Shown piece by piece: positions 1 through 55,389 of a stretch of 56,804 bases of DNA. Made by a program: the position numbers and the translations under genes. Numbering within the stretch: position 1 is the first letter of the stretch; every line of letters starts with the position of its first letter. Source of the DNA: a virus (taxonomy: Duplodnaviria > Caudoviricetes); the IMG/VR virus record IMGVR_UViG_3300032318_001198, positions 1-56,804 of that record. One strand, given 5' to 3'. The notes under the pieces were generated by a model. That model made no database searches. It saw nothing but the letters and a program-made list of their open reading frames with translations, and had not been told where the DNA came from.

Positions 1-14
1 CGGCTTCGCCACCC
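1..14. repeat. Left copy of 14-bp terminal direct repeat CGGCTTCGCCACCC (putative cos end)
   Basis: Identical to 56791-56804; reverse complement GGGTGGCGAAGCCG matches lambda cohesive end GGGCGGCGACCT at 8 of first 9 positions. Confidence 0.85.
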
Positions 15-91
15 TGCTGTCCCTTATGTTTGTAAAAGTTATCTACTCCTTTTTTATTTTGAAATGCTATGCTCATATACTTATCTTATCT

Positions 92-568
92 CTACACTAT
101 AACTACTTGTCGACTCTTGGCTATCTTCTTGTCTAGTGCATTGCGTCTTAATACAAACTGCTTGGTCTTTGCCTTCCTTAAAGGACAAGACATTGCTAAG
201 TTATAATCTATTGTCTTGTAACACTTATTGAGTAGGCGTGCTATAGCGTTCTTGTTTATCCCTTGGGAATATAATGATCTAATTACTTTTCTTCTAAGCT
301 CTACTAGGGGTGCGTCCCTTTGGGTTGATCTTAATTGTTCTAACTGAATAGGGTTAAAGTTTGTTTCTAGGTATACCCCCCCTTGCTTTTCTAGGCTATC
401 AAATAAAGTGCCCCTTATCTCTGTGGTCTTAAGTGGGTTAGCTAGGGTAAGTAGATAGAGCTTAGTAGTTAGTTCTTGGGTCTTTTGCTCTAGTGCATTG
501 ATACGTTCTAGTGCTAGGGCTAGGGCGTGCCTTAGTGGGGTGTCAGAGGGGCTACGTATATTGTCCAT
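92..568 (-). CDS. Putative HTH DNA-binding protein
   Basis: N-terminal coiled coil; LYSQGINKNAIARLLNKCYKTIDY looks like an HTH. Confidence 0.5.
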   Translation of the reverse strand: MDNIRSPSDTPLRHALALALERINALEQKTQELTTKLYLLTLANPLKTTEIRGTLFDSLEKQGGVYLETNFNPIQLEQLRSTQRDAPLVELRRKVIRSLYSQGINKNAIARLLNKCYKTIDYNLAMSCPLRKAKTKQFVLRRNALDKKIAKSRQVVIV

Positions 569-1119
569 TACTTGTCGCCTAGGGTGAATCGTGGGGCATC
601 GTCGAGCATTTCTAGGGTATCTAGGAATGTTTTCTTGAAGAGTGTCTGAACGCTTAGGGGTGCAGGGAGTGCTAGTACTAGGCTCCCATATAGGTAGGTT
701 GGTGAGTTAAAGTGGGGTGGGAACTGAGTGCTTTGGTCTATCTCTGATATAATTACTTCCTTAAGGTCGCCAAGGGCTGTGATCTTATCAGAATATGATG
801 CGTATAGCATACCAGCATTGTAAAGCTTCCTCTCCTGCTCGATAGTTCCTTCTCTCGCATCGTTAGAGTCCCACAGTTCAAAAGGTGTTAAGAGAGGCTC
901 AAAACGCAAGAATAAAGGCCAATTCTTGCCTTTGTCTTCAACGTAGTAGTAGTTCGTCCCACCCTCACTAGTCTCGTCTTCGAAACTCGCAATCATATCT
1001 CTTTTTACTTTTGTTACAGTTCCCCACACTCCAGCGAAGTTGAAATAGCCTCCTTGTCTTAGTGTCGCACCCAACATCATCCACTCATCACCCATCGTTC
1101 TGAATATGGTCGTGTTCAT
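568..1119 (-). CDS. Hypothetical protein
   Basis: 183-aa ORF, stop/start overlap with next gene. Confidence 0.6.
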   Translation of the reverse strand: MNTTIFRTMGDEWMMLGATLRQGGYFNFAGVWGTVTKVKRDMIASFEDETSEGGTNYYYVEDKGKNWPLFLRFEPLLTPFELWDSNDAREGTIEQERKLYNAGMLYASYSDKITALGDLKEVIISEIDQSTQFPPHFNSPTYLYGSLVLALPAPLSVQTLFKKTFLDTLEMLDDAPRFTLGDK

Positions 1120-1137
1120 TTGGTATAACGCATTACT

Positions 1138-1338
1138 TTATAGTTCATTTTTTGATTTCGTTAGCATTTCCCACTCAGCAGGGCGAGTATAGCCAAGTGA
1201 GAATATAAATCCTAGAACGAACCACCAAGGACTGTTTCCCATCACGAATACTACGTAGCCAGTACCACCTATGGTCATCGATAGAAAGAATATGATGTAG
1301 ATTAGATAAGTTACGACTTTAGTTAAATTTAATAGCAT
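1138..1338 (-). CDS. Small membrane protein
   Basis: Two hydrophobic segments. Confidence 0.5.
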   Translation of the reverse strand: MLLNLTKVVTYLIYIIFFLSMTIGGTGYVVFVMGNSPWWFVLGFIFSLGYTRPAEWEMLTKSKNEL

Positions 1339-2023
1339 ATATGTATTTAGCTACTCCTTTTTGGTAGGTTTTCTCCCAAGTTTCTTTGTTGCGTCTCATT
1401 CTGATTCCCTCAGTCATCCCGAGAAATTTCCAGTTGTCCGCCTTATAGATTGTGCCAGTACGAGGAGGTTCGACGAATGTAGCCATCCCAAGTAAAGTCT
1501 CCTTGTACTCGTTCGCATAGTCTTTCCTAGCTAGATTGCGGAATATCTTCAAGACTTTTGTGGCAAGATTCTTGTCGTTGCGAGTAAGCCTGAATACGTT
1601 GTTGACCACATATTGCTTCTCATCTGCTCCATCGAAGAACTCCTTGAACTTGAGATAGTTTTTGGGAGGACTAGAACAACCTATAATGCCAATAGCCTTC
1701 TTATCTAAGTAAACAAGGTAACAGAGGGCACGTCCTACGATTCCCTTCGACTCTGGATAGTGACTAAAGAATAGACTGCCAAACATTCCATTGCTCTTAC
1801 TGACTCGTTCCAAGAAAAGCCCATCTACGAAACACATCTCCTCTTGTGGTCTATCGTACATCCCCGAGTTTCCAGTCATCTTGTTAGGTCTGTCATTCTT
1901 GCAAGACGTGCAGATTAGCCTGCCGAAAGCTGAGTGGAGCCTGCCTTCTGCCCCACATTTGGAACATTGATGAGCTAAGAACTCTTTTTCTATTCTTTCG
2001 TCTTGGAGCTTGAATACTTCCAT
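1319..2023 (-). CDS. DUF4338/Mom-like GNAT-fold protein with N-terminal zinc ribbon
   Basis: CSKC..CTSC; HY..GR.L.YLV, NNVFRL, TFVEPPRTGTIYKADNWKFLG.T.G motifs typical of DUF4338/Mom-like proteins. Confidence 0.65.
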   Translation of the reverse strand: MEVFKLQDERIEKEFLAHQCSKCGAEGRLHSAFGRLICTSCKNDRPNKMTGNSGMYDRPQEEMCFVDGLFLERVSKSNGMFGSLFFSHYPESKGIVGRALCYLVYLDKKAIGIIGCSSPPKNYLKFKEFFDGADEKQYVVNNVFRLTRNDKNLATKVLKIFRNLARKDYANEYKETLLGMATFVEPPRTGTIYKADNWKFLGMTEGIRMRRNKETWEKTYQKGVAKYIYAIKFN

Positions 2024-2171
2024 ATCCTACCCTCCTTATCGAACCCTATTGATTTTTTCATCAGAAACGAATAAAGCTTATAGAATATAGAGAAATTATT
2101 TAGGATTGGGCAGTAGCAAACAATATGCCCTGCTAGGTAGAATAGGTACGATAATATGTAGCAGATAGCCC

Positions 2172-2309
2172 TCAATCGAATATACCATTACTTTCCCGCT
2201 CCTTGCGAATAGATGTTTCGAATCTGAAAAACGAAAAGTCCTTAATCTCGTCGTGCTCTTGGTCGGTTGGGGCTTCTATTTTTGGGTCTTTGGGTTCGTT
2301 TGTATTCAT
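2172..2309 (-). CDS. Small hypothetical protein (45 aa, not in ORF track)
   Basis: ATG overlaps upstream stop; MNTNEPKDPKIE...GIFD*. Confidence 0.4.
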   Translation of the reverse strand: MNTNEPKDPKIEAPTDQEHDEIKDFSFFRFETSIRKERESNGIFD

Positions 2310-2602
2310 ACTAATTGCTCCTCTGGTTGTTCTGCGAAGTTTTCTATATCTTCTGGTTCTTGTATCTCCTGAAATCTTTCTTGTTTGAATCCCCTTTCCA
2401 TATATGGGGCAACCTTACTTTTTGGATTGCCAATCTCCTCAAGCGTCACAGCAATTTGACCAGCTTCTCCGTCTATTCCAACTCCAACCCCGACATCTCG
2501 AATAGTGTATATTCTGTCTTTGATTGGTAAATGGGTATAGTAAATCATAATCTCTACTGGAAATTTATCATCCACACATACCACTTTTGAGCCAGTTCTC
2601 AT
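2306..2602 (-). CDS. Hypothetical protein
   Basis: ATGA-coupled ORF; G.KVVCVDD N-terminus common in phage proteins. Confidence 0.65.
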   Translation of the reverse strand: MRTGSKVVCVDDKFPVEIMIYYTHLPIKDRIYTIRDVGVGVGIDGEAGQIAVTLEEIGNPKSKVAPYMERGFKQERFQEIQEPEDIENFAEQPEEQLV

Positions 2603-3093
2603 TGCTTGTCGCCTAATTTTTGAATTAGTTTGTAAGAGAATAAAACTCTGTCGATGACTATTTTTGCCCTCTTGGACGGCTCCTTGGTTAAGAAGTTTCC
2701 AATCTTTCCAATCTTGTATGGAGGGACTCCAGCCTCGAGATTCTTGTCGAGGAACTTGTAGCCGTTATATTGCTCCTTAGTTGGGTCTGCAATCTCTAGG
2801 GTGTCCTTGTGAACTAGCCACCAATGCGTAGCCCTACCTCCTTCGTCCGTATAGATGGCGTAGTGGGGTTGCCATAGGCTCTTATCGAGCAAGTGCCACA
2901 AAGCCTCGCTAGCTACGTAGCAATGCCCATCCAGCGTTCCCTGCTCCGTCCTCCACCTCCCCCTTAGCAACTCTGGAGAGAGTGCTTTCTGCACCATTTG
3001 TCTCACTTCTTCGACTGAAAGGAGCGGGAGGGTTGGACTTGCACCACCATTTCCCTCTTGGAATAGAGGACGTTCTAGGATTGAACTACTCAC
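2599..3093 (-). CDS. Putative papain/transglutaminase-like Cys-His-Asp protein
   Basis: GHCYVASEALWHLL ... HWWL ... IADPTKEQ triad-like spacing. Confidence 0.45.
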   Translation of the reverse strand: MSSSILERPLFQEGNGGASPTLPLLSVEEVRQMVQKALSPELLRGRWRTEQGTLDGHCYVASEALWHLLDKSLWQPHYAIYTDEGGRATHWWLVHKDTLEIADPTKEQYNGYKFLDKNLEAGVPPYKIGKIGNFLTKEPSKRAKIVIDRVLFSYKLIQKLGDKQ

Positions 3094-3095
3094 GC
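3020..3095 (-). tRNA. Degenerate tRNA-Gly(TCC)-like element overlapping start of ORF 2599..3093
   Basis: Acceptor GCGTGAG/CTCCCGC (6/7), D stem GTTC/GAAC, anticodon stem TCCTC/GAGGG with 8-nt loop TATTCCAA, T arm GGTGG-TGCAAGT-CCAACC, ends TCCT. Confidence 0.6.
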
Positions 3096-3361
3096 ATCGT
3101 TACCTCGAGTATCGAACTAAAGTTTGGGTTGAGAGGTCTTCCAGTTTGTTCACAGAAGTAGTCTAGTCTTGATAGTGCTGATTTCGTATTTTCCTTGTCC
3201 TTGGTTGACCACTTGTGCCACGTCTCTCTCAAGCCCACCCTCATAATTACTCGTAGCATCTGACATTGATCTGCATTTGGAAATATCACCGCTTTTTGCA
3301 TAGGAGCCTTTGTTCTCCGCTTGCCCGAAACACCACAATGTTTCTGAATTACGTTTTTCAA
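3086..3361 (-). CDS. Hypothetical protein
   Basis: ORF in tightly packed operon. Confidence 0.55.
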   Translation of the reverse strand: MKNVIQKHCGVSGKRRTKAPMQKAVIFPNADQCQMLRVIMRVGLRETWHKWSTKDKENTKSALSRLDYFCEQTGRPLNPNFSSILEVTMRE

Positions 3362-3362
3362 T

Positions 3363-3602
3363 TTATAGTATCTCGCTTTCGTGTTCGATGAGAATTGCTA
3401 GCTCTCTTGTTTTTCCTTTGCCAGAGAAGTTCATTACCATAGGGAGCAAGTCCCTAAGAAATTTACCCCTCCGATTTGCAGTCACCCGAGCCAACTCAAC
3501 TATATCTTTCCTCAACTCGAGGGGAATTTCGCTGAGTCGTCTGATGGGGTACTGAGCAGTCGCACACTCCTCTGCGAACTGCATACGATGAAGTTTTTTC
3601 AA
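3363..3602 (-). CDS. Hypothetical protein
   Basis: ATGA-coupled ORF. Confidence 0.55.
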   Translation of the reverse strand: MKKLHRMQFAEECATAQYPIRRLSEIPLELRKDIVELARVTANRRGKFLRDLLPMVMNFSGKGKTRELAILIEHESEIL

Positions 3603-3967
3603 GGCTCACACTCCAGAGCAACCATAGCCATTTTTGAAACTTTCTCGTCTACCTCTGCTAGCTTGCGGAGATTCGCCTTGAGCCGTTTGTTGGACGCTTC
3701 CAAGGCTAGACAACGCAAGAAAAGTTCCTCGTTCTTTTTCCTCATACTCTCCAGTCCAGCTTGCAACACTTGGTCGCTTGCGGAGGAAAAGGTTCCCGAG
3801 GTGATAGCTGGGGTGATGCTCATTGTGTCTAGTAAACTATTGCACCGAGGAAGCTTGTTGGCAAGCTCCTTCGCAATGCTCGCTTTCAGTTGCGATAGAT
3901 GGAAATTGTTGCCACTCTTGAAGCTTGTCTCTGAGTATTCGATCTTCGGTACTGCATCTATAATCAT
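3599..3967 (-). CDS. Hypothetical coiled-coil protein
   Basis: GAGG SD upstream; C-terminal heptads. Confidence 0.55.
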   Translation of the reverse strand: MIIDAVPKIEYSETSFKSGNNFHLSQLKASIAKELANKLPRCNSLLDTMSITPAITSGTFSSASDQVLQAGLESMRKKNEELFLRCLALEASNKRLKANLRKLAEVDEKVSKMAMVALECEP

Positions 3968-4202
3968 CTTTCTGTGCCTCCTCGTTTTTGTTTAATTTGG
4001 TTTGTGATGATGCCAGCAAGTCAACGATGTATTGAGCAAGTTCGTGAGTGTCTTTTTGCTCTCTTGGGGAAACTCCTCGTAGATAAACTTTTAGAATCGC
4101 CTTACCCTCTGAGTCATAAATATCGTAATTTTGCGGTGAGGATGATGGGATTGATTTAGCAGTATGCCAAGGGTAATTGAATTTCGATGGTAGGCTATTC
4201 AT
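3837..4202 (-). CDS. Hypothetical protein (start revised to MNSLPSK)
   Basis: ATG overlaps stop of 4199..4393; PWH motif. Confidence 0.45.
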   Translation of the reverse strand: MNSLPSKFNYPWHTAKSIPSSSPQNYDIYDSEGKAILKVYLRGVSPREQKDTHELAQYIVDLLASSQTKLNKNEEAQKDDYRCSTEDRILRDKLQEWQQFPSIATESEHCEGACQQASSVQ

Positions 4203-4393
4203 ATAGTCTTGTGCCGTCCTAGCAAAGTAACTCCCTTGGATGGATGCTGACCTATCATAGAAGAGAGGCTTGCCTTGAGCTTCCACTCCAACTCCTCGTA
4301 GAAACTTTTCCCCACTCGAGAAAAGCCCTTGGAGCGAGTAGCTTTAGCCATCGACAAAGCCTCTCTCCTTACTGCCTTTTTATTGATCAACAT
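4199..4393 (-). CDS. Putative histone-fold protein
   Basis: Basic 64 aa; helix-SRV-long helix-G(V)TL pattern resembles histone-fold a1-L1-a2-L2. Confidence 0.5.
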   Translation of the reverse strand: MLINKKAVRREALSMAKATRSKGFSRVGKSFYEELEWKLKASLSSMIGQHPSKGVTLLGRHKTI

Positions 4394-4403
4394 TTTATCC
4401 CCC

Positions 4404-4586
4404 TTAGTTTGCGATATCTAGTAGATCAAGCGTGGCTCGCAAATCAAGCTGGTCAATCTCCAATTTGATTTGCTTCAAAACAATATAGGAACTTTCAAGT
4501 GCTCGAGTGGCGTGAAACAACTTCTGTCTCGTCTGAGCTAGTTCGGATTGTAGTTCTTTGATTTCTTGGTCTGAATTTATGTTCAT
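4404..4586 (-). CDS. Small coiled-coil protein (start revised to MNINSD)
   Basis: AACCAAGAAAG leader before ATG. Confidence 0.55.
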   Translation of the reverse strand: MNINSDQEIKELQSELAQTRQKLFHATRALESSYIVLKQIKLEIDQLDLRATLDLLDIAN

Positions 4587-4612
4587 TTTGGTTTTTCTTT
4601 CTTGGTTTGGAG

Positions 4613-4780
4613 TTAAACTTTGTAATGGGTTTGAGGCACTAGGATTTCGTAGCTTCCATCGCCATAACAAGAACGAAGCTCAAACTCCGAGCCGTCTAAA
4701 TTTAGTCTAGCCTCTTCGATTGTAGAGAAGTCTTGGTGAGAATAGTTCTTGTGATTTATTACGCAGTATGTGGTTTTCAT
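4613..4780 (-). CDS. Small hypothetical protein (55 aa, not in ORF track)
   Basis: MKTTYCVINHK...; same AACCAAAGAAAGG leader. Confidence 0.55.
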   Translation of the reverse strand: MKTTYCVINHKNYSHQDFSTIEEARLNLDGSEFELRSCYGDGSYEILVPQTHYKV

Positions 4781-4807
4781 TTGTTTGTTCCTTTCTTTGG
4801 TTTGGGT

Positions 4808-5011
4808 TTAGTAATCTATGCGGGGGAAGCAGTCCCGACGAGGGGAGGATTCAAGATACTTTGCATCTTCGGGATTCAACTCTGACCACGTTTTAGGGGT
4901 GTTAAGCTGGTCGGCAATCTGCTTAATTCCCTTGTATACGTCACAAAGCCTACGCAGTTCTGCATTCCGTTCTTCAAGATTCAACTCTGACCATTTTCTT
5001 TTAGTGTTCAT
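4808..5011 (-). CDS. Small hypothetical protein (start revised to MNTKRK)
   Basis: Leader motif; internal WSELN repeat. Confidence 0.55.
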   Translation of the reverse strand: MNTKRKWSELNLEERNAELRRLCDVYKGIKQIADQLNTPKTWSELNPEDAKYLESSPRRDCFPRIDY

Positions 5012-5042
5012 TTTATTAGTGCCTTTCTTGGTTAGTTGTTTC

Positions 5043-5246
5043 TTAACCGCATCCCGCATATTTACCGATCTCTAACTTTTCCCGAATTGCCAATAACGCT
5101 TCCACCTTTTTCTTGTCTTGACCAAAATCGGGTAGGTGAATGCCACTCGTCTCACCCTCGCCTAGATTAAGCTCAAGCGAGATGGATTTGAGGAGCAGAT
5201 CGATTTCGTCATATGTGAAACTTATTAGAGGTTCGAAGAATGCCAT
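5043..5246 (-). CDS. Small hypothetical protein (start revised to MAFFEP)
   Basis: Leader motif and promoter directly upstream. Confidence 0.55.
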   Translation of the reverse strand: MAFFEPLISFTYDEIDLLLKSISLELNLGEGETSGIHLPDFGQDKKKVEALLAIREKLEIGKYAGCG

Positions 5247-5287
5247 TTGGTTTGGTTTCCTTTCTTGGTTGGTTGTTTTGTAGAAGT

Positions 5288-5316
5288 AATCTACCAATTA
5301 CCAAGCTGGTTGGCAA
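5288..5316 (-). promoter_or_regulatory. Early sigma70-type promoter with operator
   Basis: TTGCCA-17-TAGATT; TGCCAA-CCAGC-TTGGTA dyad. Confidence 0.75.
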
Positions 5317-5429
5317 GAACTATTTTGTCCCTCGGTGAACAAGCTTGCGAGCCTATTCGTCTGAAATAATAATTAGCAATGTGAAGAATACTATGTAGCC
5401 GAATCCGCAAAGAAGCCAGATAGCGTTAC

Positions 5430-5855
5430 TCATCCGTGTACTTTTTCGAGCCAGTTGAAACTAGGGAAGGAGTCGTAGGGTCTGCGAAACTCATCAGTCC
5501 CATTAAACTCCTCTGATACGCAGTTTAGGACTTTTGCTGGTTGCCCCCATAGGGCAGTAAATCCGTGCCATAGGTTAGGAGGGATGGTTAGCACTTGGGG
5601 CTTGCTTGCCGTCATAAAGAACTTCCAACTCATATCCCTTTGCTCGTCGTAAATTCCTACCAGCATCGTTCCCTCTATGACGCAGAATCGATCAATCTGA
5701 ACCTTGTGTAAATGCCAAGCCTTTACTATGCCCGAAGCACAGCCAGTAATGTAAACTTGCTTTATCTGACCATTATAGGAGTGCCTAATGATTTCGTGAA
5801 GTACGCCCCTTCCGTCTACGAAAGTGGGTTTGTCCTCTATAAAAGGCTCATTCAC
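5430..5855 (-). CDS. rfbC: dTDP-4-dehydrorhamnose 3,5-epimerase-like cupin
   Basis: DGRG.L.E, KAWHLH..Q.D.F, IPP.LWHGF motifs. Confidence 0.8.
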   Translation of the reverse strand: MNEPFIEDKPTFVDGRGVLHEIIRHSYNGQIKQVYITGCASGIVKAWHLHKVQIDRFCVIEGTMLVGIYDEQRDMSWKFFMTASKPQVLTIPPNLWHGFTALWGQPAKVLNCVSEEFNGTDEFRRPYDSFPSFNWLEKVHG

Positions 5856-6160
5856 TTGCTTTTAGCCATCTCAGTAAGGATGTTTTCTAATGCCCACACC
5901 GCTTTGTCGTAAGCCGTCATATTTTTGTTGGCGTGCTGGATTAGAACTTCCGTGGAGGTCTCGTCGATGTCCACGTCCACTCGTACCATTGCTACTTTTT
6001 GTGATCTACCAAAATGTACGTAGCCCCCACCTTTCTTAGCAGGGATTTGCTCGCTCCCGCCTCTGGCAGAACGAAGTGTTTTGACTTTTTGGCCTTTGCC
6101 TTTGCAACAATCTTTTGATTTCTCTCCAGTACAGATTTTCTTGTTTTTTTCATTATTCAT
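5852..6160 (-). CDS. Hypothetical protein (start revised to MNNEKN)
   Basis: ATGA-coupled to upstream gene. Confidence 0.5.
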   Translation of the reverse strand: MNNEKNKKICTGEKSKDCCKGKGQKVKTLRSARGGSEQIPAKKGGGYVHFGRSQKVAMVRVDVDIDETSTEVLIQHANKNMTAYDKAVWALENILTEMAKSK

Positions 6161-6486
6161 AGTTTTTTCTTTAGGTCGATGAAGACTGGAGTGCCTTCGC
6201 CTACCCAAGCTCCGAGTTGATTAAAGTAGAAGTAATCCATCGCCTCTAATCCAGTCATTCCACTCTTCTTGAGTTTTTCGATGATCTTCCATTTATCGTA
6301 AGCAACAACCTCGTCCATATTCGCCCTCTCACACCAACCGATAATGCAGTCATTGAACCCATCCATTTTCATCGCTTCCGTCCTCTTGGGGCTGAGGGTC
6401 TGGATATCCGTATCGATTGATTCTTTTTGCTGAGGCGATGGCTTTTTCCTCGATAAAACTGATTTCGATTTCTTTCCCTTCTTCAT
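6157..6486 (-). CDS. Conserved phage hypothetical protein
   Basis: DGFNDCIIG...YD..KII..L...M...EA.DYF.FN.LGAWVGE.TP.F pattern; true start probably later. Confidence 0.7.
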   Translation of the reverse strand: MKKGKKSKSVLSRKKPSPQQKESIDTDIQTLSPKRTEAMKMDGFNDCIIGWCERANMDEVVAYDKWKIIEKLKKSGMTGLEAMDYFYFNQLGAWVGEGTPVFIDLKKKL

Positions 6487-6583
6487 CCTTCGCTCTTAGT
6501 ACTCGTTGCTTTCCGTCTTGGCAAGCGATTTCCGCACAGATTCTTTTTCCGTTGTCGCTAAACCAGACTATCGTTTTCGCCAT
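6350..6583 (-). CDS. Hypothetical protein
   Basis: ORF fills gap in operon. Confidence 0.4.
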   Translation of the reverse strand: MAKTIVWFSDNGKRICAEIACQDGKQRVLRAKDEEGKEIEISFIEEKAIASAKRINRYGYPDPQPQEDGSDENGWVQ

Positions 6584-6584
6584 T

Positions 6585-6863
6585 CTATTCTAACCCCATC
6601 GTTTCGCAGAGTTCTTCCGTGATGAAAGAAAATCCCACCGCTAGGATTATTGACCGCATAGGTTCTGCAATAGTTTCTTGTATGATAGATTTCTTAACTT
6701 CCCAAATTTTCTTGTTCCTCTTTGGATTAGCCTCTGACCCATTCTTAATCCCAAGGAGCCATATCGAGCCATTCTTAACGTGTTCTCCGCAGTCCTCGCA
6801 TAGCTCGCTATTCTTGGCAAAGGGTTCTTTCTGACACACCGAGCACAGAAGGTCTTTATTCAC
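6585..6863 (-). CDS. Zinc-finger-like hypothetical protein
   Basis: CSVC..CEDC. Confidence 0.55.
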   Translation of the reverse strand: MNKDLLCSVCQKEPFAKNSELCEDCGEHVKNGSIWLLGIKNGSEANPKRNKKIWEVKKSIIQETIAEPMRSIILAVGFSFITEELCETMGLE

Positions 6864-7179
6864 GTCCTAGTTCCTCTGCCAATAACCACGCTGGCTTGGG
6901 CATCAAACCGCATTCTACTGCCCACCTACGCTCTTTGTGTGCCTTATCGTGACACTTGCGACAAAGTCCTATCCAATTCTTCACGTCATTCAATAGTTTG
7001 CCAACCCTGCCTAGTTTATGATGTATGTCCGTAGCAGGAAACCCACACCACCAGCATTTAGGGTTTTTGAGTAAGTACTCTTTACGTAGTTTAGTGTAGG
7101 TCTTGTTATCCTTAGCCCTTTTAGCCGTTGCGAACCTCATTTCATCTCTCGCTTTCTCTTCCGCAAGTAGTCTATCCAT
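6856..7179 (-). CDS. HNH endonuclease (NinG-like)
   Basis: CWWC..ATDIHHK..GR..N.IGLCRKCH..H. Confidence 0.8.
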   Translation of the reverse strand: MDRLLAEEKARDEMRFATAKRAKDNKTYTKLRKEYLLKNPKCWWCGFPATDIHHKLGRVGKLLNDVKNWIGLCRKCHDKAHKERRWAVECGLMPKPAWLLAEELGRE

Positions 7180-7370
7180 TCCTCGGATGCTTTCTTGGCC
7201 TCGTCAAATTTCTTGAACGAATAGACTAATGGTGGAGGAATCCCACCCATTGAATATCGATCTCCGAGTGGCTCGTCTGAGTTGTCGGTTCGTATGTAAA
7301 GCTCCCAATTCCCATCTCCATCTGGACAAGGGTATACATCAATATCGCTTAGGAACTTTAAGCTATTCAT
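7137..7370 (-). CDS. Hypothetical protein
   Basis: ORF in operon. Confidence 0.5.
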   Translation of the reverse strand: MNSLKFLSDIDVYPCPDGDGNWELYIRTDNSDEPLGDRYSMGGIPPPLVYSFKKFDEAKKASEEWIDYLRKRKREMK

Positions 7371-7985
7371 TTATAGTGACTTGTAAATCTCGACTATTGG
7401 CTCGAGGTCTTTCTTTATCAATACCTTCCTTTCGTTACTCCAGTTCTCGATGGGGTTTTTCCTGACCTCCTGTTTGAGCCAACGCAAGCCTTCCTGTGTC
7501 CAACTCACTAGATTGAAGCTTTTACTATACGTATCCTCCTCGGAATACTCAGCGAGACTTTTCCTCATATTTACTCGCAGTTCCGATACAGTCCACTCCT
7601 GCTCCAATGCTTTTGTTAGCCATACCTTCTGATCTTCTGGAGACAAGGGACATACTTCCCGATGGTGACTCCAAGAGAGTCCATACACTCGATTAGCCGA
7701 TGGGATTTTGCCCGATACGAAGTTGCAAGCCTTCAAGTAGTCTTGACGATGATTAGTGATTGTCTCAGCTTGAGAATACTTTTGTCCGTAGTTATGCTCA
7801 CCGAACACTAACCAATCGCCAATCCACCAGTTCAGCGAGGACTCCATTCCAGTTAGAAGCTTTCCAGCCTCTAGCCATTGTTCGATGGTATGCTCTCCTT
7901 CGATGATTAGTTCGAGGGGATTGAACTTGAATCCGTTGAGTTGTAGCTGTGTACTCGTAGCACAAACTATATTATTTTTTTTCAT
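7371..7985 (-). CDS. LmbU-like DNA-binding protein
   Basis: WWIGDWLVFGE..YG.KY, LSWSHHREV, WL..A....WTVSELR. Confidence 0.6.
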   Translation of the reverse strand: MKKNNIVCATSTQLQLNGFKFNPLELIIEGEHTIEQWLEAGKLLTGMESSLNWWIGDWLVFGEHNYGQKYSQAETITNHRQDYLKACNFVSGKIPSANRVYGLSWSHHREVCPLSPEDQKVWLTKALEQEWTVSELRVNMRKSLAEYSEEDTYSKSFNLVSWTQEGLRWLKQEVRKNPIENWSNERKVLIKKDLEPIVEIYKSL

Positions 7986-8511
7986 CTTTTATTTTCCTAT
8001 GGTTAGCGAGTCTATATGATTCCCTAGATAACTGACTCTTCATCAATCTAGGGGGTGGCAGATCAAGTTTTTCGCAAAGCTGAACAAGTTGCTTGTCCAA
8101 AGCCTGCTTAGAGATTCCGTACTTTTTAGCTAAGTCTGTTAGAGTAATCCCTTGACGTAGTCGTAAGCCAGTCGCACAAGCGTACAAATCTGCCGTTTTC
8201 CTAGGATTGGATGAGTCCACAATGTTCCCCAAAACTTGTGATATTGCTTCCCAAACTCGTTCGGATAAGGAACTTTCAACATATTGGGTAAGGGCTTTTT
8301 CCACGGAGGTATGATTAGTGGATTGCGATATTGCTGACAAGTAAATCTTTTCGACAACCATTCTGAATCCCACCAATGTCGTCGGTAGTTCGGCATCGAA
8401 AGCATAAATCCTTTCCCTAATGAGGTCTTCGATTGTGTCGATCTTTTCGCTGGGGTCATCTCTATATGACGCACTCGGCAGTAAACTAGGGTCAATGCCC
8501 TTTTCGTCCAT
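7972..8511 (-). CDS. HTH protein (sigma region-4-like), candidate transcription regulator
   Basis: C-terminal ITLTDLAKKYGISKQALDK. Confidence 0.6.
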   Translation of the reverse strand: MDEKGIDPSLLPSASYRDDPSEKIDTIEDLIRERIYAFDAELPTTLVGFRMVVEKIYLSAISQSTNHTSVEKALTQYVESSLSERVWEAISQVLGNIVDSSNPRKTADLYACATGLRLRQGITLTDLAKKYGISKQALDKQLVQLCEKLDLPPPRLMKSQLSRESYRLANHRKIKDEKK

Positions 8512-27688: not shown

Positions 27689-28065
27689 TTTGTTTCAAAA
27701 GTAGCAATAGCTTTCTCTAGGGCATTATCAAGTTCTTCTTGTTTTCTCTTAGACATAAGCCTACCAATTAAGCCGTCTGCTTGCTTCCTCTTGTCTAGTA
27801 TATAATTTCTTCCAGCCCATACAACGTCTGGAACACGCCACCGATTAGTTATATACCACTTCTTGCTATCGAAAGAGAACCACTCCCTGCCCTTTCGCTT
27901 CCCATTAGATAGCTTGGCTTTTGTTCCCATCGTATTCCTCCAAGCCTTTTTAGCGTCCTCGTCGAGACGACAAGCTGACTTATCAAGTTGTTTATTAACG
28001 TCTCCTGTAAGAGAGCTAAGGCCGAACAATAAACGCTTATCATCCCATTGAATTTCCATATTCAT
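27685..28065 (-). CDS. Hypothetical morphogenesis protein
   Basis: Basic ORF between chaperones and TMP. Confidence 0.5.
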   Translation of the reverse strand: MNMEIQWDDKRLLFGLSSLTGDVNKQLDKSACRLDEDAKKAWRNTMGTKAKLSNGKRKGREWFSFDSKKWYITNRWRVPDVVWAGRNYILDKRKQADGLIGRLMSKRKQEELDNALEKAIATFETK

Positions 28066-28244
28066 ATACCTATCAACCTCATAATGTCATCTTTTCTTTT
28101 GCTCACTCGATTACCCCATTCTGTGTTAATTCCGTGCATCCTCCAAACGGAATGTTGATACTGAAATCCCCTAGATAGAGGTAGTTCAAAAAGTATGAAC
28201 TCTTCGCTCCATCCAGTTTGACTTGCCAGAGTGATGACGTACAC
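28062..28244 (-). CDS. Tail assembly chaperone, frameshift extension (gpT-like)
   Basis: In -1 frame relative to 28265..28681. Confidence 0.7.
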   Translation of the reverse strand: MYVITLASQTGWSEEFILFELPLSRGFQYQHSVWRMHGINTEWGNRVSKRKDDIMRLIGI

Positions 28245-28264
28245 CGATATCCACTCTGGCTCGG

Positions 28265-28681
28265 CTAGTTTGGGCTTGCGTCTCCTCCACCCTTACCCTC
28301 GATTGGGCTAGCAATGGCTAGACCCGAAGAAACAATAATCTCTTCAATAATTTTACCAGCTTGTTCTAATTCTTGAACCTTAACCTTGTCCGCCCATTCA
28401 AGAACTGCTTCCCAAAATCTCTGCTTATCAAAAGACTTATACCGAACCTCGGCTAAAGGTGCGGTGTGGATATAGATAAAACTCAGAATATCGAACTCTG
28501 CGTTGTCAGTTTGTCCGCCCATTATAAGGTGATTGCCTACCTTCTTTAGAATCAAAAGACTTCCTGCCGTAAATGGTCTGAGCTTGAGTTCTCCGATCTT
28601 AAAGTCACTCTTGATAAAAGAGTCCGTGCGTTTTGTGCTAGATTGAATTGCCTCGTCGTCAGTCATTAAGTCTGTATTCAT
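28265..28681 (-). CDS. Tail assembly chaperone (gpG-like)
   Basis: Position; ends at slippery site. Confidence 0.7.
   Translation of the reverse strand: MNTDLMTDDEAIQSSTKRTDSFIKSDFKIGELKLRPFTAGSLLILKKVGNHLIMGGQTDNAEFDILSFIYIHTAPLAEVRYKSFDKQRFWEAVLEWADKVKVQELEQAGKIIEEIIVSSGLAIASPIEGKGGGDASPN
28268..28274 (-). other. -1 programmed frameshift heptamer C CCA AAC
   Basis: XXXYYYZ immediately before TAG; -1 frame is open (PKLAEPEWISVYVITLA) into downstream ORF. Confidence 0.8.
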
Positions 28682-43192: not shown

Positions 43193-44242
43193 TTAATTTG
43201 ACCGAGTTGCTCCTGCAATGTGAGTCCGAAAGGATGGGGAGTTGAATAGGGCAACCGCACTATCGGTATTCCGTCCTTCGGTTGGGATTGCTGGAACCTC
43301 GTAATTTTGCGAGCGGAGTCGGTCAAAGTGAAGGCAAGAGGCAAACCCCCAATCGAATTGAACCTTTGCCCGAGCTTTGAGGGTGGGATAGGCATTCGTT
43401 ACATCCCGCCGAGCCGAGCGACTCCAGAAGAATCGGAAAAGCTCAGAGGAGTTGATCTGCTCCTCGCTCCACCCCGAGGTCTTCCGCTTGCTGGCTTGTT
43501 GGGCAATCGCCAAACAAGTTGTGAGAATGACGAGAACTTTTGTAGGATTCAAGGTGGTCGAGAAACTCCGAAACTCGAACGTGCCGTTCGTCTTGATCTT
43601 GGTGAAGTTGATGAGGGCGTATTTCCCGATGTCGATGAAAGGGACTCGGAGTGCCCCCGACGAGGTGTGGGACGGAGACTGGCGAAGATCAGCTTTGCTA
43701 TTCCGAATCGCCCGATCTTGTTCCCGAGAGGAAAGAACCCTGCACCAACCGCTCAAGTCCCTCCGTTCTGCATTCTGGCCGAACAGAACTGGTGAGAGAC
43801 GATAGCCAAGCTTTGCAACGGATTCACAAAAGTCGACGATCTTGGCTGGCGAGTTGGAGTCGATGAAGTTTCCAGCGTGCAGAGTGACGTGGATTCCGCC
43901 TTGAGTCTGACCCGCTTGACGAATCGGACGCTTGCCCCCGATGGCTTTTATGAAAGCTAGGAAAGCAAGGATATTCTGGATTCCAGCGTCACCCTTGAGG
44001 ATGGGCGAAACAAACTCGCACTTTTTGTAGCCATTCTGAGTACGGATTGAGGGGTCTTCGTCGGCTTTCCAACACTCACCGTTGAATGTCGGTGCAACGT
44101 GAACAACCCCATCAGAGGTTGTTACCGATCTGATAGGAAGTCCTCGTCCGTGGGAGCCAATAGAGATTTGCAAGCTCTGAGGAATTGAGGTTTCGATTTC
44201 TATTCCGAACGTCTTTTCTTGGGCGTTTTCTTGATTGATCAT
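43193..44242 (-). CDS. Amidoligase (COOH-NH2 ligase, GS-like)
   Basis: FGIEIE, D.S, EFVSPIL, G.HV, KY..IN, T.EFR. Confidence 0.85.
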   Translation of the reverse strand: MINQENAQEKTFGIEIETSIPQSLQISIGSHGRGLPIRSVTTSDGVVHVAPTFNGECWKADEDPSIRTQNGYKKCEFVSPILKGDAGIQNILAFLAFIKAIGGKRPIRQAGQTQGGIHVTLHAGNFIDSNSPAKIVDFCESVAKLGYRLSPVLFGQNAERRDLSGWCRVLSSREQDRAIRNSKADLRQSPSHTSSGALRVPFIDIGKYALINFTKIKTNGTFEFRSFSTTLNPTKVLVILTTCLAIAQQASKRKTSGWSEEQINSSELFRFFWSRSARRDVTNAYPTLKARAKVQFDWGFASCLHFDRLRSQNYEVPAIPTEGRNTDSAVALFNSPSFRTHIAGATRSN

Positions 44243-53950: not shown

Positions 53951-54503
53951 TATATTGTCCCTTGAGTGCCTCGCCCTCTGATATAACAGGAACTCCTTTC
54001 GGGTAAAGTATTTTCTCCTCGCTCGTCTTGCAAACTACTAACTTAGCAAACTTCAAATAGTCAAAAGCCCAATTTACTAAGGCATCTTCCATTGGCATAT
54101 TATTGTAAACGATGTCCCTTGCTGGCTTTTGTTTCCAAAGATAAAGAACTCCCTCCCGAGTTACCGAGTAAGACTCTGGAATAGGCGGAGCAATGCCCAT
54201 CCACGCCCTCGAGCCGTAACTGCCAAGAAGTTGCACTAACTCAAAATTTGCTTGCGGAGTGCTACCTCCTACAAGAACTGGAAAACCCTGCTTAGTGATA
54301 AACTTCTTATTAAGTAGCAAGGGGCAAGTATTTGGGGAAAAGAAAAATATATGAGGATACAATCCATTCAAATAGCAATTTTTAGCTAGATTGTAGGTTG
54401 CGTCTGAATGTTTGCCGTTATGTTCCCCGCAACATACTACTGCAACCTTATCACGATCAGATATAGAGAGGAGTTCCGTCTCTAGTATTTCTTCTTTTAA
54501 CAT
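53943..54503 (-). CDS. Hypothetical protein next to TET/JBP gene
   Basis: 186-aa ORF coupled between dioxygenase and TerL. Confidence 0.55.
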   Translation of the reverse strand: MLKEEILETELLSISDRDKVAVVCCGEHNGKHSDATYNLAKNCYLNGLYPHIFFFSPNTCPLLLNKKFITKQGFPVLVGGSTPQANFELVQLLGSYGSRAWMGIAPPIPESYSVTREGVLYLWKQKPARDIVYNNMPMEDALVNWAFDYLKFAKLVVCKTSEEKILYPKGVPVISEGEALKGQYIE

Positions 54504-55389
54504 CGTCTAACTCTTTCTTTAGGGTTCCACACTTGTACATATTCTCTCTATAATAGAATACGCAACTTATTCTTTCGTGGGGAACTCCGATTTTAGGAAC
54601 AAGAGGGGTATTTCCGTGCCATTCGTGGACATCGCATAAAATTAAATCTCCAGTCCGCATATTTACCGCAGTCCTATATTTCGGGAATACTAGATTGCAA
54701 CCTTTGTAGCCTCCAGCGGAGAACGCAGTCATACACCCAAACCCTTCGGCAAGGTCTCCAGCGTCCTTATGTACCGCAGTCTGCCAGTTTTTGTTTACTG
54801 TTATGGTCGTGAATACACTATTTGGAATTACCCAATCTTTAATTGTTTTGTCGCATCTTGCTTTTTGAGCTTTATATCGTTCTGGAACTAGCTCTTTGAA
54901 GGATTTGCTGATAAATTGAATAAGGGGCAGGGCTAACGCAAACTTTTCTGGATTTTCGTTAGTCCACCTAGTTGTACGGCAATACGGCATTCTCGAAGTT
55001 TTATCGGTAAAACCTATCAAACCACTTAGAATTGGCTTAGGTCTCTCCCAAACATTGCTTAGTGTTCCATCTTTCTTAACTCGATATCCACCCTTTGTTT
55101 GATTCCCTGCTACGACAAAATTACTTTTCACATCTTTCTTAATGTTTCCGCCCGCAGTTCCACGATTATAGGTTTTTGTCGCTCCAGTTCTCAGAGATGG
55201 GTAGGCTTGCTTGCAAATTGACAGAGGAATGATTCCCTTTCGGAACTTAAGCAGAAGCTCGCCATTGGGTTTATAGACATCAGTATCCTCGTCTATGATA
55301 TGATCGTAGCAGTTTTCGTGAAGGTGAGTCCCTGCTAGGCAGTCCACCTCCTCATCTGCTAGGCATTGCGTAATATGCACGATATCCAT
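54457..55389 (-). CDS. TET/JBP-family 2OG-Fe(II) dioxygenase
   Basis: PYCR.T, FTTITVNKN..TAVHKDAGD, DVHEWHGNT, RISCVFYYRE. Confidence 0.88.
   Translation of the reverse strand: MDIVHITQCLADEEVDCLAGTHLHENCYDHIIDEDTDVYKPNGELLLKFRKGIIPLSICKQAYPSLRTGATKTYNRGTAGGNIKKDVKSNFVVAGNQTKGGYRVKKDGTLSNVWERPKPILSGLIGFTDKTSRMPYCRTTRWTNENPEKFALALPLIQFISKSFKELVPERYKAQKARCDKTIKDWVIPNSVFTTITVNKNWQTAVHKDAGDLAEGFGCMTAFSAGGYKGCNLVFPKYRTAVNMRTGDLILCDVHEWHGNTPLVPKIGVPHERISCVFYYRENMYKCGTLKKELDDVKRRNTRDGTPLYI

Follow-up and report, generated by a model that had tools for sequence, protein, structure and literature searches.

A tRNA-Gly(UCC)-derived cloverleaf spanning the junction of two phage genes appears to be under nucleotide-level selection

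A 76-nt cloverleaf derived from tRNA-Gly(UCC), recognised by its sequence, fold, homology and conservation, occupies positions 3020..3095 of the minus strand of a phage genome and spans the end of one gene and probably the beginning of the next. The reading that we favour, tentatively, is that this tRNA copy lost what marks a standard decoder and was retained, in a small clade of freshwater phages, as a structured RNA, and that the RNA would probably be cut by tRNA-processing enzymes, gating the downstream gene. The window analysed here is the whole 56,804-nt stretch, a 56.8-kb IMG/VR virus record (IMGVR_UViG_3300032318_001198) with an estimated completeness of 68%. All genes of the record are carried by its minus strand, and they include those for a terminase, a portal, a major head protein, a tape measure and an Erf-type recombinase, together with several DNA-modification-type genes.

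Read from 3095 to 3020 on the minus strand, the letters of the element are exactly those that an earlier note on this DNA had given, and the cloverleaf drawn there is confirmed. The stems follow the 7/4/5/5-bp layout of a tRNA. The acceptor stem (7 bp) contains a U4.C69 mismatch and is followed by a discriminator U and then CCU; the D stem has 4 bp; the anticodon stem has 5 bp and is separated by a variable loop, AAAU, from a T stem of 5 bp with one extra A in its 3' strand. Standard pairs make up 20 of 21 in each of the three distinct sequences of the element, and 95.2% of the cells assigned to stems in the element alignment are paired, compared with 38-59% when the partners are slid. The defects listed in the same note (a D loop without GG, an 8-nt anticodon loop, an extra T-stem base and CCU at the 3' end) are also real. 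Where the consensus of the Rfam model reads AaUGGUA, the D loop of the element reads AAUCCUA and lacks G18 and G19, while the T loop, UGCAAGU, lacks the U54-U55-C56 series and places a G where tRNAs carry U55. In place of the usual 7-nt loop, the anticodon arm presents the 8-nt UAUUCCAA (3058..3065, minus strand, with UCC at 3060..3062), and the Infernal alignment places the insertion before U33. This loop is constant in all DNA relatives, and the protein variants retain the same amino acids across it. The 3' end of the element reads UCCU.

The tRNA likeness scores low by standard tools. The Rfam tRNA model (RF00005) aligns end to end with 3024..3095 at 21.0 bits, with E = 0.077 for a search of 501 nt against 4227 families and E = 0.002 for the one family against the whole record. 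The Infernal check that the earlier note had called for thus returned a match to the tRNA model, but one short of the gathering cut-off of 29 bits, and the copy in relative L084 (22.5 bits) also falls under it. The element was also missing from the matches when all Rfam families were run over the window (E <= 10), and ARAGORN called no tRNA gene anywhere in the window, nor at the position of the element in the loci of the relatives. The minimum free energy structure of the isolated 76-mer is the cloverleaf (-18.9 kcal/mol, z -1.47), and 16 of 200 shuffles fold equally well; within 161 nt of context the minimum free energy structure keeps the D and anticodon hairpins only, with the acceptor and T arms lost (z -0.18). 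Folding energy gives no support to the tRNA likeness, which is supported by homology.

That homology emerges from a covariance model that had the element as its sole input and was run, at E <= 0.01, against 151 genomes of the bacterial order to which belongs a metagenome-assembled genome (MAG) holding a copy of the phage contig. Matches of 74 nt appear in 79 of the 151 genomes, most at 45-57 bits. The nine best loci examined are tRNA-Gly genes, eight with the anticodon CCC and one, the best of the nine (L195), with UCC. The first 25 nt of the element agree with the L195 tRNA-Gly(UCC) at 22 positions, the differences being G4>U and D-loop GG>CC, and the last 11 nt agree at 10, the exception being the terminal A>U. 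Elsewhere, in the anticodon stem, the variable loop and the T arm, little sequence is shared with L195 but the pairing scheme is the same. The element is two bases longer than the 74-nt bacterial gene; one of the additions is in the 5' part of the anticodon loop, and the other falls within the 3' strand of the T stem. Among the 30 tRNAs of the MAG, tRNA-Gly(UCC) is likewise the closest over the first 24 nt (21/24). As a matter of sequence comparison, these likenesses show the descent of the element from a bacterial-type tRNA-Gly(UCC). An alternative origin as an attP copy of the 3' half of a host tRNA was rejected, the T arms of bacterial tRNA-Gly being different; a 25-nt pattern from the 3' half found a single stretch in the genome contigs, a copy of the phage contig itself.

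The bacterial glycine determinants given in the available portion of PMC10464925, namely G1:C72, C2:G71, C35, C36 and U73, are all present in the element. The same portion describes a preference of the L. plantarum GlyRS for a purine at 4 with a pyrimidine at 69, where the element instead has U4 facing C69. The T loop UGCAAGU also occurs in two bona fide tRNAs of an array at another phage-like locus among those compared (L094), where all 10 array tRNAs, by reading of their sequences, carry G at T-loop position 55.

DNA relatives of the gene came from IMG/VR, JGI metagenomes and one MAG, and they sample a shallow divergence of 87-99% protein identity (L002, L082 and L163, ~99%; L083, 93%; L085, 91%; L084, 87%). 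Only two bases within the element vary across them, both in the 3' strand of the anticodon stem (3053..3056, minus strand), and both changes keep the pair and alter the amino acid: 3053 G>A converts U.G to U-A and produces G14E, and 3056 A>G converts U-A to U.G and produces E13G. Among four diverged relatives, synonymous variation affects none of the 25 codons of the element, whereas the remainder of the gene, codons 26-164, shows it at 50 of 138 (Fisher p = 7e-5); nonsynonymous variation (2/25 against 24/138) does not differ significantly. The first 25 codons of two other ORFs served as controls and contain 5 synonymous and 1 nonsynonymous variable codons in the upstream ORF and 3 and 5, respectively, in ORF 3599..3967. 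The codon comparison shows, for the sequences sampled, that the nucleotides of the element are far more conserved than the surrounding coding sequence and that amino-acid changes inside it are tolerated.

A wider set of 22 full-length proteins in two 90% clusters adds the variants I5S, L6T/K, N15D and A18V, which map to the D, variable and T loops if the fewest base changes are assumed. L6T/K and A18V always occur together and, judged from the protein alone, would pair A19 with U56. Every change in the element, observed or inferred, lies in a loop or preserves a pair. No pair has changed on both sides, and true covariation is absent because the element is represented by three distinct sequences only.

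When 76-nt segments were slid over 4220..2700, the one at the element had 1 variable column against a mean of 7.8. Segments as low as this number 102 of 1445 and fall at two places only, the element and a block at 3354..3500. The block, about 260 nt away, is even more conserved than the element and has no tRNA likeness, so mosaic identity or another local cause of conservation exists nearby. At the element itself, three diverged relatives all begin to differ 4-7 nt past the last base, a common 3' boundary that, on the alignment, fits constraint better than recombination tracts. An antisense ORF (2982..3161) was considered as the cause of the conservation and rejected; it is not conserved as a protein, and it cannot explain the pattern because all flanking changes are nonsynonymous in its frame. 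Judged by these comparisons, the element appears to be under nucleotide-level selection. The earlier note had proposed three roles for the element, as a translational control element, a decoy for anticodon nucleases or a frameshift-suppressor-like RNA; their common premise of an RNA-level function is supported by the synonymous suppression, the pair-preserving substitutions and the sharp 3' boundary, while each specific role stays a candidate. A blastn search of 1..8000 of the window against the phage collection gave no match, and a pattern for the anticodon arm found, among viral contigs, a near-identical contig only.

The element is shared between two ORFs. The upstream ORF (3086..3361, minus strand; 91 aa from a TTG) has its last three codons and its TAG in the 5' acceptor strand of the element, and by its substitution pattern (16 of 89 codons with synonymous and 5 with nonsynonymous variation) it is a real coding gene. 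The downstream, YunG-like ORF (2599..3093, minus strand) begins with a GTG inside the element, and the start of the one overlaps the stop of the other as GTGAGTAG. Checking the sequence upheld what had been said of both, with the GTG at element positions 3-5, in the acceptor stem, and the TAG at positions 8-10; the encoded peptide is also as previously given. GTG 3093 is the sole ATG, GTG or TTG before codon 26 in the YunG-like frame, and 9 nt 5' of it stands a GAGG (3103..3106, minus strand) that is invariant in the relatives and has a spacing typical of the ribosome-binding sites of this phage.

From this GTG the YunG-like ORF would yield a long form of 164 aa, whose residues 1-25 are encoded by the element and predicted to be disordered. 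A short form of 132 aa, the usual length of the family, would start from ATG 2997 (2599..2997, minus strand), 22 nt past the element, and an ATG or GTG at codon 33/34 is found in every DNA relative. Among the 30 cluster members listed, 22 are called from the GTG (163-167 aa), 7 from codon 33/34 (132-135 aa) and 1 is a fragment. Between the element and the second start lies a spacer, codons 26-32 (2998..3019, minus strand), in which 7 of 21 nt are variable, chiefly third codon positions, and hydrophobic positions undergo conservative V/L, V/I and M/L changes; this substitution pattern suggests that the spacer is translated. AlphaFold2 predicts a helix at 27-37 (pLDDT 84-96) and gives residues 1-17 a pLDDT below 50. 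In favour of the short form, amino-acid variability is highest in residues 26-32 (4/7 positions, against 6/25 in the element and 23/118 in the core), and at another locus, L132, an ORF is also open through a real tRNA. On balance we think that the YunG-like gene probably starts at GTG 3093 in its long form, and the long and short forms may both exist. The idea of a translational control element keeps its geometry (the GTG in the acceptor stem, the conserved GAGG and the overlap), with GTG 3093 as a putative start. No promoter-like site was found on the minus strand near the element, and no terminator-like sites in 2500..4000.

The N-terminus of the downstream product had previously been compared to those of phage Mom-like proteins. 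This likeness did not hold up: ORF 2599..3093 has no Mom match in Pfam or PHROG and is YunG-like instead, and the Mom/DruA-like matches belong to another ORF, 1319..2023. Residues 31-153 match phrog_12251 (E 4e-26), and 105 YunG-like homologues, most of them 112-150 aa long, align from about residue 25. The Pfam YunG model (PF24585) does not match the product at E <= 0.1; it gives 28.9 bits for one relative (P0032) and 26.3 for another (P0022), around a cut-off of 27. Fold searches with the protein returned weak rows only (Foldseek E >= 0.08; VIA Z <= 4.8), and a literature search on 'YunG' returned surname matches only, with no paper on the family.

We propose the following course of events. 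The element would be transcribed within a long same-strand message and, once folded, would be recognised by the host enzymes that process tRNA ends, with RNase P cutting at 3095/3096 and RNase Z or exonucleases acting near 3020. Cutting would split the message of the upstream gene from that of the YunG-like gene, and it would also destroy the initiation site formed by GAGG and GTG 3093 and free a stable tRNA-like RNA. On an uncut transcript GTG 3093 would be held in the acceptor stem and, because start and stop overlap, would be reachable only by ribosomes finishing the upstream ORF; initiation coupled in this way would give a YunG-like protein with a disordered 25-residue tail whose sequence is dictated by the RNA. 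Once released, the RNA may in addition be charged and read GGA codons, or serve as a nuclease-proof substitute or decoy. Two considerations speak against processing. A cut by RNase P at position 1 would, awkwardly, leave the upstream message without a stop codon. RNase P also normally reads the elbow bases of tRNAs, which are altered in the element.

Several other explanations bear on the same observations. That the element is a pseudogene without an RNA-level role, a decayed phage tRNA-Gly into which an ORF or the gene caller ran and whose conservation reflects shallow sampling or a recombination tract, seems to us rather unlikely. The sub-threshold score with its several defects, the ultra-conserved block without RNA likeness 260 nt off and the lack of covariation among three distinct sequences all suit this explanation, as do the absence of the extension from most family members and from L088 and the ORF that is open by chance through a real tRNA in L132. 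Neutral decay is nonetheless a poor fit because the stems that differ are still paired, the loops are invariant and synonymous sites are frozen (0/25 against 50/138). Pairing persists in every stem, even in the anticodon and T stems, which have little sequence in common with bacterial tRNA-Gly, a state that needs compensatory change under selection; moreover, the conserved tract stops at the 3' end of the element in three diverged relatives, and each change, observed or inferred, is in a loop or pair-keeping. At the opposite extreme, the element could be a working non-canonical tRNA-Gly(UCC) that is cut out, repaired to CCA at its 3' end, charged by a bacterial GlyRS and used to decode GGA, which we hold to be unlikely. 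It would account for the nucleotide-level conservation and for the full set of classical glycine determinants (as listed in the available part of PMC10464925), GGA makes up 45% of the glycine codons of the phage (541/1214) but 17% of those in the 43 long ORFs counted from the MAG, the G at T-loop position 55 recurs in all 10 tRNAs of L094, and natural tRNAs with 8-nt loops read triplets in yeast mitochondria (PMC3113583, in the part available). A standard decoder is nevertheless a poor fit because five functional sites (C18C19, the 8-nt loop, the extra T-stem base, U4.C69 and CCU) are altered at once. The score of 21 bits is under the Rfam cut-off and ARAGORN calls nothing, the expanded loop would carry a risk of frameshifting at 541 GGA codons, and the MAG is connected to the phage as host only through a binned contig.

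A structure for translational coupling or repression only, in which the fold hides GTG 3093 and the tRNA ancestry is incidental, is in our view very unlikely. The position of the GTG at acceptor positions 3-5, the start/stop overlap and the conserved GAGG 9 nt upstream would be expected of it; codons 26-33 evolve as coding sequence, and the helix predicted at 27-37 needs an upstream start. A hairpin would, however, suffice for this purpose, leaving the invariant D, anticodon and T loops and the glycine determinants unexplained, and the short form is possible too, with the ATG or GTG at codon 33/34 kept and used in 7 of the 30 listed gene calls. We consider it highly improbable that the element acts as a tRNA of the +1 frameshift-suppressor type, or replaces the host tRNA-Gly(UCC) as a decoy or nuclease-proof stand-in against tRNA-cutting defences. 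In favour of such roles, the element retains its fold and identity marks but has an altered decoding geometry, its anticodon loop is extended 5' in the manner of the SufJ (C31.5) insertion type (PMC4238358, available portion), and changes in the anticodon loop are proposed, in the available portion of PMC10264068, to let phage tRNAs escape anticodon nucleases. The suppressor idea of the earlier note retains its SufJ-like loop base, and neither of the two ORF pairs checked requires a +1 shift: the tail-chaperone pair overlaps in the -1 frame, and in the pair 3837..4286 / 3599..3967 the second ORF has its own strong start behind GAGGAGG. Against a decoy, the host of this phage is not known to have a defence gene or a target. 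A more elaborate version, which we regard as quite unlikely, sees in the same 76 nt the last codons and stop of one gene, the start and 25 codons of the next and a re-engineered tRNA-Gly that keeps its glycine marks, with an enlarged anticodon loop and a rebuilt elbow that sets C18 opposite G55 and, in one lineage, an inferred A19 opposite U56. The released RNA would be unusable by the tRNA-targeting enzymes of the host and would serve as a stand-in for glycine tRNA or as a decoy, and the same cut would switch the YunG-like protein between its long and short forms.

Phage tRNA genes are now viewed as weapons against host defences that cut tRNAs, and to our knowledge the catalogued phage tRNAs are those called by tRNA finders. 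The element suggests that tRNA-derived RNA can stay under tight selection and yet fail such finders, hidden in annotated coding sequence. Should it be processed, as we favour, bacterial viruses would have their own counterpart of the organellar t-elements, and the N-terminal tail of a protein would have its sequence dictated by RNA structure; should it be charged, a natural tRNA of a bacterial system would combine a rebuilt elbow with an anticodon loop of 8 nt.

The known systems closest to the element are compared here as far as the available portions of the cited papers describe them. Among phage-encoded tRNAs are some whose anticodon loop is altered (van den Berg et al. 2023, PMC10264068), and the element resembles these in tRNA derivation, in an isoacceptor type that corresponds to a codon over-used by the phage (GGA here), in the altered anticodon loop and in a host-like acceptor stem. 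Unlike them, the element stays under the thresholds of both tRNA finders, with its 8-nt loop, CC for G18G19, extra T-stem base and CCU, and its sequence takes in the stop of one ORF together with the putative start and first 25 codons of the following ORF. In plant mitochondria, t-elements act at the ends of mRNAs as tRNA-like signals for processing (Forner et al. 2007, PMC1920247), and they share with the element a tRNA-like fold at a message boundary, the departure from a standard decoder and, as proposed here, the status of a substrate for RNase P and/or RNase Z. The fold of the element indeed sits at a boundary between coding regions, covering the TAG of ORF 3086..3361 and the beginning of ORF 2599..3093. 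The element differs from t-elements in belonging to a bacterial virus and in keeping a complete anticodon arm and the glycine determinants. Among laboratory +1 suppressor mutants, sufD is a tRNA-Gly with an extra C beside the anticodon and SufJ carries C31.5 (PMC4238358); the element has the glycine tRNA background and an 8-nt loop, with the extra base on the 5' side as in SufJ. Those mutants are otherwise normal tRNAs, whereas the element is also changed in the elbow, T stem and 3' end and has no site to suppress at the two ORF pairs checked. Yeast mitochondrial tRNA-Thr1, with its natural 8-nt anticodon loop (PMC3113583, PMC4267643), is comparable in that selection has kept an enlarged loop, and unlike the element it is a proven organelle decoder.

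Beyond the immediate clade, most members of the YunG family are without an N-terminal extension resembling the element. One locus, L088, was considered as a carrier through a tblastn match reaching query residue 10 and was rejected; it has no element, and its start is a family-typical TTG. Within the 20 relatives' loci scanned with Rfam at E <= 10, no tRNA-like match lies upstream of the YunG homologues of L086-L091 and L093, which are 50-60% identical. Genuine tRNAs do stand directly upstream of YunG homologues in three loci: a tRNA-Trp type (31.3 bits, 361..429) before a family-type ATG at 440 in L132, a tRNA-Tyr (1379..1467) before a YunG-like match from 1501 in L095, and a tRNA-Thr (2906..2986) before a match from 3001 in L047. 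A fourth, L094, contains an array of 10 tRNAs in 3.35 kb with a YunG-like gene inside it and tRNAs on both sides. ARAGORN finds tRNAs in 8 of the 161 loci overall. With tRNAs adjoining these homologues, the element and its YunG-like gene look like the remnant of such an array, or a module from one, and the repeated placement of tRNAs beside genes for these putative Cys-His-Asp enzymes hints at a functional link.

Across the YunG-like family, the residues G56 H57 C58 Y59, H90 W91 W92 and D103 (numbering of the window protein, encoded at 2599-3093 on the minus strand) are invariant. The predicted structure of the window protein has a pLDDT of 86, and fold comparison of this model returned weak matches only (Z ≤ 4.8; Foldseek E ≥ 0.08), to transglutaminase/papain-like Cys-His-Asp enzymes that include TglA, LapG, arylamine N-acetyltransferase and protein glutaminase. 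A cysteine-enzyme role is offered as a lead only.

In three unrelated contigs, a tRNA ends 10-35 nt ahead of a YunG-like gene: a Trp-type tRNA in L132 (361-429), a tRNA-Tyr in L095 (1379-1467) and a tRNA-Thr in L047 (2906-2986). This tRNA-then-YunG order is also the arrangement found in the window. On the large phage-like contig L094, a 10-gene tRNA array (1-3354) encloses the YunG-like gene at 1501..1854, and ARAGORN called tmRNA genes a few hundred bases to ~2 kb from YunG homologues on large viral contigs (L006/L007, 3555-3968; L030, 5029-5384). As the L094 tRNA sequences were read here, T-loop position 55 was G, not U, in all ten (10/10). Their T loops include UGCGAAU and UGCAAGU, and the D loops were likewise unusual. 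Judged from these sequences, L094 looks like a case of a systematic tRNA elbow variant.

Near the tRNA-like element of the window (3095..3020, minus strand), a 147-nt block on the same strand (3354-3500) has zero variable positions across the window and the relatives L083 and L085, and is more conserved in this comparison than the element itself. ORF 3363..3602 has its final ~45 codons in this block, which also takes in the start of ORF 3086..3361; its folding gave z = -1.76, and Rfam gave no match there.

Over the 131 nt shared by ORF 3837..4286 and ORF 3599..3967 (3837-3967), comparison with relatives indicates coding-like evolution in the downstream frame only. Variable codons in the upstream frame comprise 1 synonymous and 12 nonsynonymous, and in relatives this frame acquires a stop further forward. 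Ahead of the tape-measure gene lies a -1-frame open stretch (28062..28292) that shares 28 nt (28265-28292) with the ORF that ends at 28265, the usual layout of a tail-assembly-chaperone frameshift.

Glycine codon usage of the phage is strongly biased, with GGA accounting for 541 of the 1214 glycine codons in all listed window ORFs; in G001, a bacterial MAG linked to the phage by binning, the count is 154/929 (43 long ORFs). Because the window carries a Mom/DruA-like gene (1319-2023), an amidoligase-like gene (43193-44242) and a DpdA-like gene of the queuine tRNA-ribosyltransferase type (54457-55389), its gene content suggests that the phage hypermodifies its own DNA.
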